From a virus (taxonomy: Duplodnaviria > Heunggongvirae > Uroviricota > Caudoviricetes): 4,793 nt of DNA. The stretch is from the IMG/VR virus record IMGVR_UViG_3300029577_000119, one strand, 5' to 3'. The number at the start of each line of letters is the position of its first letter. Position 1 is the first letter of the stretch. Below, one piece after another: positions 142 to 4,793 of the stretch. Position numbers and translations under genes: made by a program. The notes beneath the pieces were generated by a model. That model searched no databases. It was given only the letters and a program-made list of their open reading frames with translations, and was not told the origin of the DNA.

Positions 142-329
142 TGAAAGTAAAAATAACTGCTTCTAATACCAGTTTTGTTAGTGTTGGTGATATTACAGAA
201 GTAATAACAAACCATGATGGAACCCAAGTTATGTGGTCTGATTTTTGTAAAAGATATGAGCGAGTTAGTTGGTGTAAACTCGTATGGGGCGTCGAATACG
301 AAGAATTACCTGAAATGCATGACGAATAA
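141..329 (+). CDS. hypothetical small protein (62 aa), AT-rich
   Basis: ORF-track ORF with ATG at 141 overlapping the upstream stop (TAATG); GGGGA 6-10 nt upstream could serve as SD. Visibly AT-rich (first 60 nt about 30% G+C by hand count) compared with downstream genes. Product not recognised. Confidence 0.55.
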   Translation: MKVKITASNTSFVSVGDITEVITNHDGTQVMWSDFCKRYERVSWCKLVWGVEYEELPEMHDE

Positions 330-334
330 GCACT

Positions 335-362
335 GTGTATTCATTCCAACGAGTGAATACAC
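335..362 (+). repeat. perfect inverted repeat GTGTATTCA-N10-TGAATACAC (hairpin or dimeric protein binding site)
   Basis: Read directly: arms 335-343 and 354-362 are exact reverse complements, 10-nt spacer ttccaacgag. Begins 6 nt after the stop of the 62-aa ORF. No downstream T-tract, so not a canonical intrinsic terminator. Confidence 0.5.
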
Positions 363-422
363 GGAGCAATGTCGCTCGTAACTAAACAGGAGCCGACTTG
401 TTCTGATTATTGGAAATCTTCT

Positions 423-450
423 TTGCCCTCCAGTGTGAGGGCAATTTTTT
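423..450 (+). terminator. rho-independent terminator, + strand orientation
   Basis: TTGCCCTC (423-430) / loop cagtgt / GAGGGCAA (437-444), perfect 8-bp GC-rich stem followed immediately by TTTTTT (445-450). On the opposite strand the hairpin is not followed by a T-run. Confidence 0.7.
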
Positions 451-462
451 GACGGAGGATAT

Positions 463-1431
463 ATGAGTGAAGTAACAGATTTAGTTGTTATTGAAAAAGC
501 AAATGCAATGACTGTATTTCAGTCTGCCGACCAGATTGAAGAAATCCTTCAAAAGGTTGAACGTGAAGTTATGTCCTTTGTGCCTGATATCACAACGGCA
601 AAGGGCAGAAAGGAGATCGCTTCTCTGGCGTATAAAGTTGCGCAGACGAAAACATATCTCGATGGTCTTGGAAAAGACCTTGTTGCTGAACTGAAGGAAA
701 TTCCAAAGCTAATTGATGCCAACCGCAAGACAGTGCGTGATCGCCTTGATGAGCTGAAATCCAAGGCACGCCAGCCTCTTACTGATTATGAGGAGGAACA
801 GGCACGGATTAAAGCCGAAGAAGAAGCTAAGGCAGCAGCTGAAGCTCTCGCAAAGCAAATTGAGTCTGACCATGAAATAGCTATTTTGATGGATCGCGAA
901 TTTGACCGCCAAAGAGAAGAGGCAAGACTCAAAGCGGAGCAGGAAAAGCGAGAGCATGAAGAACGCTTAAAAAGAGAAGCTGAAGAGAAAGCCAGAGCAG
1001 AAGCCGAAGCAAAGGCAAAAGCCGAAATTGAAGCAGCAGCAAGGCGAGAAGCAGAAGCTAAGGCCGCAGCGGAACGTGCAGAGCGTGAACGCATTGAAGC
1101 CGAGCAACGAGCACAGCGCGAAGCAAAAGAGGCAGCAGAACGAGCTGAAAGAGAAAAGCAGGCGGCAATTGAAGCAGAACGCCGAAAAGCACAGGAGGAG
1201 GCTGAACGAATCCGGCGCGAGGCTGAAGCAAAAGAGCAAGCCAGAATAGCAGAAGAAAAAAGAATCAAGGACGAAGAAGAGCGTAGAGCAAAGGATAAAG
1301 CTCACCGGAAAGAAGTAAATAACAAAATACTTGCTGACCTTATCAAGGTTGGCGCATCAGAAGATGTTGCTAAAAATATCATAACAGCCATCGTAAAAGG
1401 CGAAGTATTCGCAACAAAAATAACCTACTAA
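463..1431 (+). CDS. hypothetical protein with a long E/R/K/A-rich predicted single alpha-helix or coiled-coil segment (TolA-domain-II-like composition); function unknown
   Basis: 322-aa ORF; GGAGG at 454-458 upstream of ATG 463. Residues ~108-284 (nt ~784-1314) are almost exclusively E, A, K, R, Q (e.g. REAEEKARAEAEAKAKAEIEAAARREAEAKAAAERAERERIEAEQRAQREAKEAAERAEREKQAAIEAERRKAQEEAERIRREAEAKEQ), flanked by a ~107-aa N-terminal and ~38-aa C-terminal region of ordinary composition. No N-terminal hydrophobic segment. The many minus-strand ORFs over this span are shadows of the repetitive GAA/GCA/AAA codons. Confidence 0.8.
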   Translation: MSEVTDLVVIEKANAMTVFQSADQIEEILQKVEREVMSFVPDITTAKGRKEIASLAYKVAQTKTYLDGLGKDLVAELKEIPKLIDANRKTVRDRLDELKSKARQPLTDYEEEQARIKAEEEAKAAAEALAKQIESDHEIAILMDREFDRQREEARLKAEQEKREHEERLKREAEEKARAEAEAKAKAEIEAAARREAEAKAAAERAERERIEAEQRAQREAKEAAERAEREKQAAIEAERRKAQEEAERIRREAEAKEQARIAEEKRIKDEEERRAKDKAHRKEVNNKILADLIKVGASEDVAKNIITAIVKGEVFATKITY

Positions 1432-1454
1432 TAAACCAACATAAGGAACCACCC

Positions 1455-1586
1455 ATGATTTACGCAATCGCGGGAGGCGCTCGCATGGGTGCCTTCCAAC
1501 TAAATGAATCTTTACTTGAACGAATCACCCGTAAATTACGTGACGGATGGAAAAGAGTTGAGGTCTTATTATGCGCAATGAAATAG
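1455..1586 (+). CDS. cIII: cIII-like protein (FtsH inhibitor / lysogeny regulator homolog), 43 aa
   Basis: Not in ORF track (too short). ATG 1455 preceded by AAGGA at 1444-1448. Translation MIYAIAGGARMGAFQLNESLLERITRKLRDGWKRVEVLLCAMK* matches, from memory, the lambda CIII N-terminus and core amphipathic region (ESLLERITRKLRDGWKR). Shorter than lambda CIII (54 aa) at the C-terminus. Confidence 0.8.
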   Translation: MIYAIAGGARMGAFQLNESLLERITRKLRDGWKRVEVLLCAMK

Positions 1587-1723
1587 CCATCAATCACCAG
1601 ATGCTTCGTGCTGCACAGAACAAAGCAGTAATAGCCAGATTTATTGGTGATTCCAAAATGTGGTTTGAAGCAAATAAAGCGATGAAATCAGCTATCAACC
1701 TTCCGTGGTATCGCAGGAAATGA
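1571..1723 (+). CDS. kil: Kil-like small protein (putative host cell-division inhibitor), 50 aa
   Basis: ATG 1571 with GAGGT 8-12 nt upstream; overlaps the 3' end of cIII by 16 nt in another frame. Translation MRNEIAINHQMLRAAQNKAVIARFIGDSKMWFEANKAMKSAINLPWYRRK*. The IARFIGDSKM motif resembles my recollection of lambda Kil (..ATFIGDEKM..), and the position directly after cIII matches kil in lambda and P22. Identity is from memory and position only. Confidence 0.55.
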   Translation: MRNEIAINHQMLRAAQNKAVIARFIGDSKMWFEANKAMKSAINLPWYRRK

Positions 1724-1878
1724 GTTTTACAGATAACTGGTCAGACGAAGAATTCATTCGTCAGATGAAAGAATTAATCGGTAACGAAGGAGATATTCAT
1801 GTCACTTGCAACCACAGTGAAGGAGAGCAAGTTACAGAGACGCATGTACACGCAGAAAGCTCTCTGGTATCGCCATAA
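1720..1878 (+). CDS. hypothetical small acidic protein (52 aa), candidate 1 for the kil-erf slot
   Basis: ATG 1720 overlaps kil stop (ATGA at 1720-1723). Translation MSFTDNWSDEEFIRQMKELIGNEGDIHVTCNHSEGEQVTETHVHAESSLVSP*. No well-spaced SD. Overlaps the alternative ORF 1799..1969 in a different frame. Confidence 0.35.
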   Translation: MSFTDNWSDEEFIRQMKELIGNEGDIHVTCNHSEGEQVTETHVHAESSLVSP

Positions 1879-1969
1879 TGGCGATCGCGAAGGAATGCGG
1901 GTATGCCTTAATTTGTCCAGAGTCGAAGTTTTAAATCAGCGTTATTTCCTTGGGGAATGTCCATTCTGA
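1799..1969 (+). CDS. hypothetical small basic protein (56 aa), candidate 2 for the kil-erf slot (arf position in P22)
   Basis: ATG 1799 preceded by consensus SD AAGGAG (1786-1791) at 7-nt spacing. Translation MSLATTVKESKLQRRMYTQKALWYRHNGDREGMRVCLNLSRVEVLNQRYFLGECPF*. Ends 10 nt before the erf ATG. Not in ORF track (under 60 aa). Confidence 0.45.
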   Translation: MSLATTVKESKLQRRMYTQKALWYRHNGDREGMRVCLNLSRVEVLNQRYFLGECPF

Positions 1970-1979
1970 GAACAAACAT

Positions 1980-2585
1980 ATGAGCAAAGAATTTTACGCA
2001 AGACTGGCAGCTATTCAGGAGAATCTGAACGCGCCAAAAAATCAGTACAACTCATTCGGTAAATATAAATACAGAAGCTGCGAAGATATTCTTGAAGGCG
2101 TTAAGCCGTTACTGAATGGTCTGTTTTTATCAATCAGCGATGAAGTTGTGTTGATTGGTGATCGGTATTACGTGAAAGCCACGGCAACTATTACCGATGG
2201 CGAAAACAGTCATACGGCAACCGCTCTTGCACGAGAGGAAGAAAGCAAGAAAGGAATGGATTCTGCACAAGTTACGGGAGCTACAAGCTCTTATGCACGC
2301 AAGTATTGCCTCAATGGTTTGTTCGGCATTGATGATGCGAAAGATGCAGATACAGACGAGCATAAACATCAGCAGAACGCAGCAGCAAAGCAATCAAAAC
2401 CATCACCTACACCTGAACAGGTTCTAAAAGCATTCACTGACGCAGCAATGCAGAAAAACACCGTAGAAGAGCTTAAACAGGCGTTCGCCAAAGCGTGGAA
2501 GATGCTCGAAGGCACACCGGAGCAGCACAAAGCGCAGGACGTTTACAACATCAGACGAGACGAATTAGAAGGAGCTGCTGCTTAA
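1980..2585 (+). CDS. erf: Erf-family single-strand annealing protein (essential recombination function)
   Basis: ORF-track ORF 1950..2585 begins at a TTG; the ATG at 1980 gives MSKEFYARLAAIQENLNAPKNQYNSFGKYKYRSCEDILEGVKPLL.., which closely matches my recollection of the phage P22 Erf N-terminus. 201 aa. Followed immediately by ssb with TAATG overlap. Confidence 0.85.
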   Translation: MSKEFYARLAAIQENLNAPKNQYNSFGKYKYRSCEDILEGVKPLLNGLFLSISDEVVLIGDRYYVKATATITDGENSHTATALAREEESKKGMDSAQVTGATSSYARKYCLNGLFGIDDAKDADTDEHKHQQNAAAKQSKPSPTPEQVLKAFTDAAMQKNTVEELKQAFAKAWKMLEGTPEQHKAQDVYNIRRDELEGAAA

Positions 2586-2969
2586 TGGCACATTCGATTA
2601 CTGTAAGACTAAACAAGCCCGCAAGAGAGTTTCAGGCCGNNNNNNNNNNATATCGGATTCAACATCCGTGCTGGCGTTCAGTATTACGATCGCCAGACAA
2701 AAAAGAAAGAATGGACAAACTACAGCGCCGTTGTATTTGCCAAGCCGGGAGCGCAAGCGGATTACTACCGTAGTGTTCTTGTTGAAGGTGGAATTGTGGA
2801 AATTACCGGAGAAAACATCAGGGTTGATGTTTATCAGGGGCAAAATGGTCAATCAATCACTCTTGAATTACTGAATGCAAAGATTGGATTTGCAGCTTCA
2901 GGAAATGGCCAGCAGCAAAGTAGCAATCATCAAAATCATCCTGAATACGACGATTCAATTCCCTTCTAG
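2585..2969 (+). CDS. ssb: phage single-stranded DNA-binding protein (SSB), interrupted by an assembly gap
   Basis: ATG 2585 overlaps erf stop (TAATG). N-terminal MAHSITVRLNKPAREFQA runs into the N-run. After the gap, the frame with codons at 2652.. reads IGFNIRAGVQYYDRQTKKKEWTNYSAVVFAKPGAQADYYRSVLVEGGIVEITGENIRVDVYQGQNGQSITLELLNAKIGFAASGNGQQQSSNHQNHPEYDDSIPF*, ending in the acidic DD(S)IPF tail diagnostic of bacterial/phage SSB. The two halves are in different frames relative to window coordinates, so the 10 Ns do not represent the true gap length. Confidence 0.7.
2640..2649. other. run of 10 N (assembly gap or masked bases)
   Basis: Ten consecutive n characters in the sequence, inside the ssb reading frame. 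Confidence 0.95.
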
Positions 2970-2992
2970 ATTAGCAAAATAAGGCTCCCATT

Positions 2993-3289
2993 ATGCCAGC
3001 GCCTCTGTATGGTGCGGATGACCCGCGCAACTGCTCCGGTAGCTCCAAGGCGGAGGTGCTGGAAAATATCAAAAATAATTTCGACACGTTTATCGATCTT
3101 CCACCAGAAACAAAAGCAGAACGGATGTACCGACGCGATATACAACTCGCGTTAAAAGATGAGAAGGACCGAACAAACGAAACAGCAATGAGACCGTTGC
3201 GAAAAGAGACAATAGACAAATTCCCTGAATATATCGACCCGCGCCTGCGTAATTACCGCTCACGCTATGGCGCTATCAGTAATGACTGA
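2993..3289 (+). CDS. hypothetical protein, 98 aa; possibly Abc2-like anti-RecBCD protein (unverified)
   Basis: ORF-track ORF; ATG 2993 with AAGG 8 nt upstream. Translation [98 protein letters not shown]. The Abc2 suggestion rests only on size (P22 Abc2 is about this length) and position distal to the recombinase in the pL operon; sequence not confirmed from memory. Confidence 0.6.
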
Positions 3290-3299
3290 GGAATTTACC

Positions 3300-3464
3300 A
3301 TGAGAGGACTTGCATACAATCCCGGCATTCTTCCGGCAGAAATGATTATTCGCCAACGCGTAAAGCCAATGCCATCGAGAGAGAAATTGCTTAAGAGAAA
3401 GAGTTTCGGTTCTGTTAATGACAACAAATATCTGAATGCAATGTTGCGGAGTGGGAAGAAATGA
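3300..3464 (+). CDS. hypothetical small basic protein (54 aa)
   Basis: ORF-track ORF 3267..3464; I prefer the in-frame ATG at 3300, which has GAGGA at 3288-3292 (7-nt spacing) and begins after the 98-aa ORF stop (3287-3289). Translation [54 protein letters not shown]. Stop overlaps the next ATG (ATGA 3461-3464). Confidence 0.5.
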
Positions 3465-4042
3465 AACAAATGTCACTAATTAAGATGGATGGTTTTCTGA
3501 AAGGTAAATGCATCCCATGTGATTTAAAGGTTAACGAAACAAACGCTGAATATCTGGTGCGTAAGTTCGGTGAACTTGAATCAAAACTAGAAACGGCGTT
3601 GCGGGAGTGTCGTTCTGCTGGAATCACGATTGATAACCTTGAGGCCAAGTGCGCGGCGCTGGCTGTGGAGAATGCGTGGCTGAATAAATTTATCGTACAG
3701 AGTTGCTACGTGTTTGACGGCGAGCAGGGTGAACTATCTGATGCGTATATCTGCGCAATAGACGGAAGGATGCCGCAAACCCAAGTCACCGACGCTTTTT
3801 GGGATGAAGTGAAGACTGAAGCACGCAAGGAAGGCGCTTACTTTGTGGCGAACAGAATGCTGGCTGCCTGGGATGCTGGTTTTATTGATGATACTGCGAA
3901 GAACGCAGCGGATATTGCCAGGATGATTCTTACCTCTACTGAGTTTATGGCTAATGCGCCGGAAGGCGATTTCGATCGCTCGTTCGCTGATGGTGTACTC
4001 GAAGACATCGCCGCCCAGATTCGCAAGGGGGACGCGCAATGA
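3461..4042 (+). CDS. hypothetical acidic protein, 193 aa (phage accessory 'ea-region' type gene)
   Basis: ORF-track ORF; ATG 3461 overlaps upstream stop (ATGA). Contains a CxxC pair near the N-terminus (CIPCD), a predicted helical segment ([40 protein letters not shown]) and an acidic C-terminal half. Not recognised. Confidence 0.75.
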
Positions 4043-4581
4043 GCAACATCGACAAACAGGCGCTGCGTGAAATCGCAGCGGCAGCAGTTGGCGCACATGA
4101 GCGCCTTAGTGTTATGCCGCCTGATGACATTTTCGATATCTCACTGGCAGAAGGAACTCAGCTTGATGCAGATATCACTGCCTTGAACGCGCTGAACTCC
4201 GCAGCAAACCCCACTACCGTGCTGGCGCTGCTGGCATCGCTGGAAGCCGCAGAGAAGCGCATTGCAGAACTGGAAGCGCGTGCATTCAATCCTGCAATTC
4301 TGGATGTGATAGCAGAGCGCCAGCGGCAACAATCGGTTGAGGGGTGGATGCCAGAGCATGATGACGAACACTGCAACGGGGAACTGGCAATGGCGGCGGT
4401 TTGTTACATAAACGAAACAGGAACTGTTAACCGCAATGGTGGCAAGCCGTGGGGGTGGCCTTGGGATACTTCATGGTGGAAGCCAAATGCCCGCCGTCTC
4501 AACCTGGTAAAAGCAGGGGCTTTAATTCTGGCTGAAATCGAACGCATAGACCGCGCCGCTGGCATCGGTAAGGGGGAGTGA
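4039..4581 (+). CDS. hypothetical protein, 180 aa; possibly Ead/Ea22-like family (unverified), with a Trp-rich C-terminal motif
   Basis: ORF-track ORF; ATG 4039 overlaps upstream stop (ATGA 4039-4042), AAGGGGGA upstream. The segment TTVLALLASLEAAEKRIAELEARA resembles a motif I associate with Ead/Ea22-like prophage proteins. C-terminal part carries HDDEHCNGELAMAAVCY and GGKPWGWPWDTSWWKP. Family assignment is from memory only. Confidence 0.75.
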   Translation: MSNIDKQALREIAAAAVGAHERLSVMPPDDIFDISLAEGTQLDADITALNALNSAANPTTVLALLASLEAAEKRIAELEARAFNPAILDVIAERQRQQSVEGWMPEHDDEHCNGELAMAAVCYINETGTVNRNGGKPWGWPWDTSWWKPNARRLNLVKAGALILAEIERIDRAAGIGKGE

Positions 4582-4793
4582 TGCTTCAACATCAAATGCA
4601 GCCAACATTTAACACCTGCATGGCTACCTGTGTAGCAATGGTTGCTGGTCAGCCTGTTGACGAGGTGGTTGCTCGCTGGCACCAGGCTTTTCACGACAAA
4701 ACAGACTGGCTGGATGATGCCCTGGATTATTACAAAATCCCTTACTTCTACGGCAGCCAAAGAAAATGTGAACTGCTTTATGGGTTTATTTAT
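4581..4793 (+). CDS. 5' part of a CDS continuing past the window; N-terminus has a papain-like/C39-like cysteine peptidase motif (tentative)
   Basis: ATG 4581 overlaps upstream stop (TGATG 4579-4583) and is preceded by strong SD AAGGGGGAG (4570-4578). Open to the window end: MLQHQMQPTFNTCMATCVAMVAGQPVDEVVARWHQAFHDKTDWLDDALDYYKIPYFYGSQRKCELLYGFIY.. The Q-x6-C-x3-C-x-AM arrangement resembles the Gln (oxyanion) and catalytic Cys signature of C39-type peptidases (Q..C-G-x-A-C-L-x-M). The catalytic His/Asp would lie beyond the window. Confidence 0.6.
   Translation, partial: MLQHQMQPTFNTCMATCVAMVAGQPVDEVVARWHQAFHDKTDWLDDALDYYKIPYFYGSQRKCELLYGFIY

Follow-up and report, generated by a model that had tools for sequence, protein, structure and literature searches.

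We analysed a window of 4,793 nucleotides, the whole stretch of DNA considered here, from a virus of the Caudoviricetes (IMG/VR record IMGVR_UViG_3300029577_000119), and in particular the open reading frame (ORF) at 3461-4042, which encodes a protein of 193 amino acids (aa). Judged by sequence comparison, this protein is a chimera, in which the N-terminal module of Oad2, an inhibitor of the P2 OLD nuclease encoded by phage HK446, is joined to the C-terminal module of EaE from phage P22. The gene is an ordinary member of a named, poorly understood prophage family, that of P22 EaE, and only its combination of modules is new. As to function, we give an even chance to the reading that the protein is a dimeric, non-enzymatic anti-immunity adaptor of the EaE/Oad2 family, whose conserved C-terminal bundle would bind a conserved host or prophage protein.

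The front of the protein is of the Oad2 type. Over residues 1-75 it has about 90% identity to Oad2 (HK446 gp27), with 40/44 identical positions in residues 1-44 and 25/28 in residues 45-72, and residues 1-44 are also identical to HK75 gp28 at 40 of 44 positions. BLASTP against Oad2 reports 59% identity across residues 1-122. The homology does not extend over the full length, as only residues 1-75, the TDAF...EV motif and the C-terminal QxRKG tail can be aligned. The two proteins are similar in size and acidity and have in common the TPATDAF...EV motif and the tail, whereas beyond about residue 76 they are unrelated save for these two short motifs. A middle segment of 45 aa is peculiar to Oad2, whose C-terminal region is also the shorter one; the 193-aa protein instead has a 70-aa bundle of the EaE type.

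The back of the protein is that of P22 EaE (NP_059592, 165 aa), which BLASTP matches with an E value of 1e-56 and 67% identity over residues 60-190. Across residues 122-193, 65 of the 68 aligned residues are identical to the C-terminus of P22 EaE (96% identity for the protein, 83% for the DNA). These 68 codons contain 32 synonymous and three non-synonymous differences, which corresponds to a ratio of non-synonymous to synonymous substitution rates (dN/dS) of about 0.01, with dS saturated. Such near-identity of the proteins at this level of DNA identity, combined with the very low dN/dS, indicates that the C-terminal domain is a real one under strong constraint. Both proteins also have the LAxEN core of the coiled coil and the TDAF motif, whereas the N-terminus of P22 EaE (residues 1-35) is unrelated and shorter, and its linker is different. 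T107, T110, D111, A112, F113 and E116 of the 193-aa protein are invariant in our alignments A1 and A4. A hidden homology between the cores of the EaE-type and Oad2-type C-terminal halves was considered and rejected: hhalign aligned only an 18-residue stretch with the TPATDAF motif (97.6% probability) and a 16-residue QLRKG tail, and the cores are not detectably related.

The same mosaic can be read in the DNA. In a blastn comparison of the window with HK446, HK75, P22, MG40 and Bas106, the match to HK446 is 94.8% identical across 3299-3684, that is, over the DUF2737 gene and codons 1-75 of the following gene, and then stops; megablast identity to HK544 ends at 3665. Identity resumes at 3779 with MG40 and at 3826 with P22 eaE, the latter being limited to 3826-4029. 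Across 323-4029, the window shares 95% identity with phage Sf101. Among 5426 complete Escherichia coli genomes, 922 hold a partial DNA match and four hold at least 80% of this combination. The DUF2737 gene and the part of its neighbour that encodes the head and stalk (3300-3464 and 3461-3684) travel as one DNA block.

The original prediction had described a well-supported ORF, translationally coupled on both sides and lying in the counterpart of the lambdoid ea region, and all three statements were borne out. The ORF list contains the frame on the plus strand with its 193 codons, and the sequence displays the two ATGA overlaps, one at 3461-3464 with the upstream stop codon and one at 4039-4042 with the downstream ATG; a GGAG is located 9 nt 5' of the start codon. 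That this is a real gene follows from the relatives annotated in many phages and from purifying selection at the codon level (dN/dS of 0.14 for the full-length protein compared with its counterpart in Bas106). Within 3200-4793 we found no Rfam match and no promoter-like site, and terminator-like sites occur at chance level; the ORF is therefore one cistron of a longer operon. This operon is the early-left (PL) operon of a lambdoid, P22-like phage, read along transcription, and the gene sits between the recombination genes and the xis/int genes of the P22/lambdoid ‘ea’ region. The genes encode, in order, a 322-aa coiled-coil protein, CIII, Kil, a Gp33 homologue, Erf, an SSB-like protein, Abc2, a DUF2737 protein, the 193-aa protein and an Ead/Ea22-like protein. 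The P22 order is identical (abc2, orf56 for DUF2737, eaE, more ea genes, xis and int), and it recurs in Salmonella phage MG40, where the homologue is labelled ‘Eae like protein’, and in Escherichia phage Bas106. By comparison with these three phages, the gene occupies the place of an EaE-family member, 3' of abc2 and orf56/DUF2737 and 5' of ead-like genes. It equally occupies the place of oad2, since HK446 gp27 also directly follows DUF2737 in an Erf/Abc2/Gp33 recombination locus.

No family had been assigned to the protein in the original prediction. This is true of Pfam, NCBIfam and PADLOC, where scanning returned a sub-threshold match to the TBCC_N coiled coil and nothing else, but not for PHROGs or for the named EaE protein of P22. 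Two PHROGs of unknown function, phrog_14548 (E 1e-83) and phrog_614 (E 1e-70), match the protein from end to end, and phrog_583 matches residues 3-43; the first of these is a profile of 378 positions that covers the 193-aa protein and the downstream Ead-like protein as a single fused polypeptide. An exhaustive HMMER search recovered 696 representative clusters (50% identity, E<=1e-3), most of which match either the N-module only or the C-module only. When PDB sequences were searched with the protein or with a profile of the C-terminal domain, either no match was returned or just weak ones to bZIP/GCN4 coiled coils, the latter with a profile that takes in the region of residues 28-82. Enterobacterial prophages very commonly carry genes of the EaE family, nearly all of them labelled hypothetical, and beyond the OLD preprint discussed below the literature on EaE that we retrieved consists of genome-annotation remarks, such as that on an EaE-HNH fusion in epsilon34, the search terms being swamped by unrelated uses of ‘EAE’.

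The full-length AlphaFold2 model, built from an alignment of 150 sequences, has a mean predicted local distance difference test (pLDDT) score of 84.4. It contains a short helix at residues 6-13, a long helix of 55 residues at 28-82 (pLDDT 87-95), a short helix at 94-100 within a poorly defined linker (pLDDT 57 over residues 81-100) and three helices at 108-138, 146-165 and 174-189. The helical segment noted from the sequence was thereby recovered as the long helix. This helix keeps a single continuous heptad register, in which 14 of the 16 a/d positions are hydrophobic and Asn71 occupies an ‘a’ position; E70 and N71, inside the conserved LAAENA motif, are invariant in alignment A1. GCN4-type zippers are in-register parallel dimers, and by analogy with them the heptad register and the asparagine at ‘a’ suggest that a leucine-zipper-like stalk would make the 193-aa protein an in-register parallel dimer as well. 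Modelled alone, the C-terminal domain reaches a pLDDT of 92.1 and a predicted template modelling (pTM) score of 0.76. Foldseek with the predicted full-length structure, put forward earlier as a check, was uninformative (best E 2.7 in the PDB and 0.8 in BFVD). Neither the Pfam and NCBIfam scans nor the AlphaFold2 models and fold searches revealed a catalytic-looking fold, an enzyme or a match to a DNA-binding family.

The N-terminal CxxC to which attention had been drawn is present (C17-I-P-C20) but is not a feature of the family. C17 is found in 71 of 103 aligned relatives and C20 in 8 of 97, arginine being the commonest residue at the latter position; the motif reads C-I/F-P-R in Oad2, HK75 gp28, HK97 Gp37 and MG40 Eae. 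The remaining cysteines considered, C50 and C64, fall on ‘a’ positions in the core of the coiled coil. In view of the rarity of C20, the usual arginine and the core positions of C50 and C64, a metal site is not a family feature, and a zinc knuckle or other metal-chelating CxxC was rejected as a candidate.

The two modules have distinct distributions. Among 80 IMG/VR loci encoding an EaE-type C-module (83-94% identity), 29 carry the Oad2-type head. In the 26 of these with enough upstream sequence, DUF2737 is encoded upstream in 25, Abc2 in 23 and Gp33 in 18. The other 51 loci carry different heads, which are either Ead/Ea22-like or of types beginning with MESNIKG, MKSEGL or MKFSKF; upstream of these, DUF2737 was found in 5/47 loci and Abc2 and Gp33 in none, and the next gene downstream is usually Ead/Ea22-like. 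In total, the C-module is reused on at least five unrelated N-terminal heads. Natural fusions are also found among the representative proteins, and combine an RNase_T exonuclease with the stalk and an EaE-type C-module (P0139, 361 aa), an Oad2-type N-head with HNH_3 (P0207, 254 aa) and an Oad2-type N-head with DUF551 (P0226, 289 aa); an EaE N-terminus joined to an HNH nuclease had been noted earlier in the epsilon34 genome paper. The EaE-type C-module behaves as an autonomous, portable domain. Its strong constraint and its reuse on many heads are what one would expect of an autonomous binding domain with a conserved partner.

Some of the C-module genes with other heads (locus L018, 3732-4610, and loci L022 and L029) lie in arrays with Ead/Ea22-like genes. 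These arrays are located 3' of genes that resemble, as judged by eye, replication and PAPS-reductase genes, a context that differs from the PL recombination locus.

The functional precedent comes from a preprint of July 2026 (10.64898/2026.07.10.737580), according to which HK446 escapes P2 OLD although it encodes Gp33, the OLD-triggering protein of HK75 and HK446, a putative RecBCD manipulator that suffices to set off P2 OLD toxicity. A plasmid library screen recovered gp27 of HK446, which was named Oad2 (OLD anti-defence protein 2). On its own, Oad2 rescues recB-deficient cells from OLD toxicity and abolishes defence by OLD, it works without the DUF2737 protein, and it forms a stable complex with OLD with which it co-purifies (10.64898/2026.07.10.737580). 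It inhibits tRNA cleavage by the wild-type OLD tetramer but not by constitutively active dimeric mutants, from which it can be concluded that Oad2 blocks the activation of OLD. The authors also describe Oad2 as a relative of P22 EaE and mention that members of the family can be fused to HNH or Ead/Ea22 domains (10.64898/2026.07.10.737580).

By this precedent, the anti-defence role that had been suggested for our protein from its position gains a basis in homology, its front half being so close to that of a direct inhibitor of P2 OLD, whereas the description of the protein as unrecognised does not hold, given its homology to P22 EaE. Dimerization, protein binding, an anti-immunity role and the module that bears specificity are what we infer for it. 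It would be an accessory protein of the early PL operon, made up of a small head, a leucine-zipper-like stalk, a variable linker and a C-terminal three-helix bundle. Its most likely function is to bind stoichiometrically to, and neutralize, a protein of the host or of a resident prophage by which infection or induction would otherwise be aborted, much as Oad2 binds the OLD tetramer and prevents its conversion into an active tRNase. The EaE-type bundle, possibly with the linker, is the probable partner-binding part. Because the same operon encodes the OLD trigger Gp33 and Abc2, the phage bears the kind of RecBCD-manipulating liability that such inhibitors offset.

The most direct alternative is that the 193-aa protein is a functional orthologue of Oad2, which would bind P2-type OLD and block its activation. 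The shared N-module, the same place after DUF2737 and the presence of Gp33 in the operon all speak for it, and the preprint did not map the OLD-binding part of Oad2. However, HK75 gp28 and HK97 Gp37 share the N-head and stalk and the position after DUF2737 (the N-modules of Oad2 and HK75 gp28 are identical at 68 of 77 positions) and differ in having a third type of C-terminal half, identical between these two phages, both of which are listed as OLD-sensitive (10.64898/2026.07.10.737580). The N-module is therefore apparently not sufficient for protection, and the Oad2-type N-module probably does not carry the anti-OLD specificity. The unique middle segment and C-terminal helices of Oad2 are the likely specificity determinants, and the 193-aa protein has neither. 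In addition, the authors themselves emphasize the lack of protection by a homologue with 54% identity (10.64898/2026.07.10.737580); for the HK75 homologue, failure is deduced from the sensitivity of the phage, as the supplementary plasmid table lists no construct for it. We consider an Oad2 orthologue to be unlikely. Since the EaE-type bundle differs from the corresponding part of Oad2, the partner is probably not P2 OLD, and another conserved protein common to Escherichia, Shigella and Salmonella is the more likely target.

Several observations weigh against the view of the protein as an anti-immunity adaptor. Oad2, its only characterized relative, differs from it over the whole C-terminal half. 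HK97 and HK75 have this N-module too and are listed as OLD-sensitive, so that the part shared with Oad2 is probably not the active one. The Oad2 result rests on one preprint that has not yet been peer-reviewed. A dN/dS this low is not what is classically expected of an arms-race interface. Finally, the C-module occurs mostly (51/80 loci) away from DUF2737, Abc2 and Gp33 and is hence not tied to RecBCD-manipulating modules.

It is tempting to go one step further and to regard EaE, Oad2 and Ead/Ea22 as one plug-and-play anti-immunity scaffold, with a leucine-zipper stalk and swappable heads and tails, each directed against a different immune sensor of a host or prophage. The Ead/Ea22-like proteins (PF13935; lambda Ea22 and P22 EaD) likewise have a variable head, a coiled coil and a variable C-terminal domain, they are encoded in the same gene arrays, and the EaE C-module is sometimes found on their heads. 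The EaE bundle would then be a distinct specificity module with a target different from P2 OLD to neutralize, such as a further ABC-ATPase/TOPRIM nuclease of the OLD family or a further system by which the manipulation of RecBCD is sensed. We put this forward as a tentative idea, more doubtful than probable. If it is true, hundreds of uncharacterized ‘ea’ genes would turn into an inventory of immune inhibitors; if it is false, the ORF is just another ordinary accessory gene from the ea region of lambdoid phages. The 193-aa protein is in any case a natural domain swap, with the front half of Oad2 and the highly conserved back half of P22 EaE, suited to mapping the specificity of Oad2 and the target of the EaE module.

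A different role, as a modulator of lysis and lysogeny like lambda Ea22 that acts on phage development and not on host immunity, would fit the NCBI name ‘ead/Ea22-like’ carried by some close homologues, the frequent fusion of the C-module to Ead/Ea22-type N-termini and the Ead/Ea22 genes that follow it, and earlier work on EaD/Ea22 with regard to lambda lysogenization (cited in 10.64898/2026.07.10.737580). Yet the 193-aa protein has no match to PF13935 at E<=1, pairwise comparison with P22 EaD and with the adjacent Ead-like protein gave no significant similarity, and no regulatory (DNA-binding) fold was found, which leaves this role with a small probability. One paper reports that deletion of eaC-eaE in P22 gave no viable particles, which says little about eaE alone, as the deletion spans many genes next to xis.

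We attach a similarly low probability to an accessory function in the recombination module, in which the protein would act with the basic DUF2737 protein, Abc2 or Erf, for instance by tuning RecBCD or recombination. Here the translational coupling to DUF2737, the opposite net charges of the two products (+10 versus -11) and the regular presence of DUF2737 (25/26) and Abc2 (23/26) upstream of the genes with an Oad2-type head are the arguments in favour.

The protein is indeed acidic, as had been claimed, with an isoelectric point (pI) of 4.57 and a net charge of -11; the acidity is concentrated in residues 86-193, and the C-terminal half (97-193) has a net charge of -8 and a pI of 4.3. The mimicry of nucleic acid proposed on this account, by which the protein would sequester DNA-binding host proteins, is nevertheless very improbable, as the net charge is only -0.057 per residue (17% Asp and Glu versus 11% Lys and Arg), far below that of Ocr and similar DNA mimics. 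In the model, the acidic residues do not line up along an extended scaffold; among the residues conserved in the C-module, most are hydrophobic or mixed and not acidic; and neither the PDB nor BFVD gave a match to the folds of Ocr, ArdA or Gam-like proteins.

Table 1. Position of the 193-aa protein gene, its parts and other genes in the window (positions in nucleotides of the window).
Feature	Position	Strand	Description
EaE/Oad2-family gene, complete	3461-4042	+	193 aa plus stop; ORF list, sequence, annotated phage homologues, PHROG matches
N-terminal head, aa 1-27	3461-3541	+	Short helix 6-13 (AlphaFold2); holds the non-conserved CxxC
55-residue helix, aa 28-82	3542-3706	+	Predicted parallel coiled-coil stalk with LAxENA motif
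Mosaic junction zone	3685-3778	+	HK446/HK75 DNA identity ends at 3684; variable linker, low model confidence
Family-wide motif, aa 106-121	3776-3823	+	Consensus TPATDAFLAEVRAQ; located where the C-terminal bundle begins
C-terminal three-helix bundle, aa 108-189	3782-4027	+	P22-EaE-type module; proposed partner-binding domain
CIII			Pfam PF02061
Kil			Pfam PF06301
Gp33 homologue, 52 aa	1720-1878	+	48/52 identical to HK75 Gp33
Erf			Pfam PF04404
abc2 (anti-RecBCD protein 2)	2993-3289	+	Pfam PF11043, E 1e-35; phrog_656
DUF2737 gene (P22 orf56 homologue), 54 aa	3300-3464	+	Pfam PF10930, E 8e-29; stop overlaps the start of the 193-aa ORF
Ead/Ea22-like gene, 180 aa	4039-4581	+	Pfam PF13935, E 4e-17 over residues 2-81; start overlaps the stop of the 193-aa ORF

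The neighbouring genes (Table 1) gave some further observations. The DUF2737 protein is strongly basic (pI 11.1, net charge +10), and its charge, opposite to that of the 193-aa protein, together with the coupled translation of the two genes suggests that they may form a complex, in which the DUF2737 protein would be the basic partner of the original prediction. The Gp33 homologue differs from HK75 Gp33 in nothing but its last few residues, and the GTG at 1705 is given as its start in the mechanical ORF list. The 180-aa Ead-like protein has a C-terminal domain, at about residues 65-175, with which far larger phage proteins end as well (PHROGs 6628, 9434 and 3956, whose profiles have 500-685 positions). 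A partial ORF at 4581-4793 (+), beginning MLQHQMQPTFNTCMATCVAMVAGQPVDEVV..., starts at the stop codon of the Ead-like gene in an ATGA-type overlap (GTGATG), continues past the end of the window and has no Pfam match at E<=0.1.

At the other end of the operon, the 322-aa protein (463-1431, +) has no Pfam family; it has a long, repetitive coiled-coil centre rich in Glu, Ala, Lys and Arg, matches PHROGs 1376, 21365 and 17211, all of unknown function, and is called ‘TolA’ in some phage records. The SSB-like gene, a gp31 homologue at 2585-2969 (+), is broken by an assembly gap of 10 N at 2640-2649, the length of which is not the true one, as the reading frame differs on either side of it. The part downstream of the gap belongs to no Pfam family and ends in an SSB-like tail, ...EYDDSIPF.
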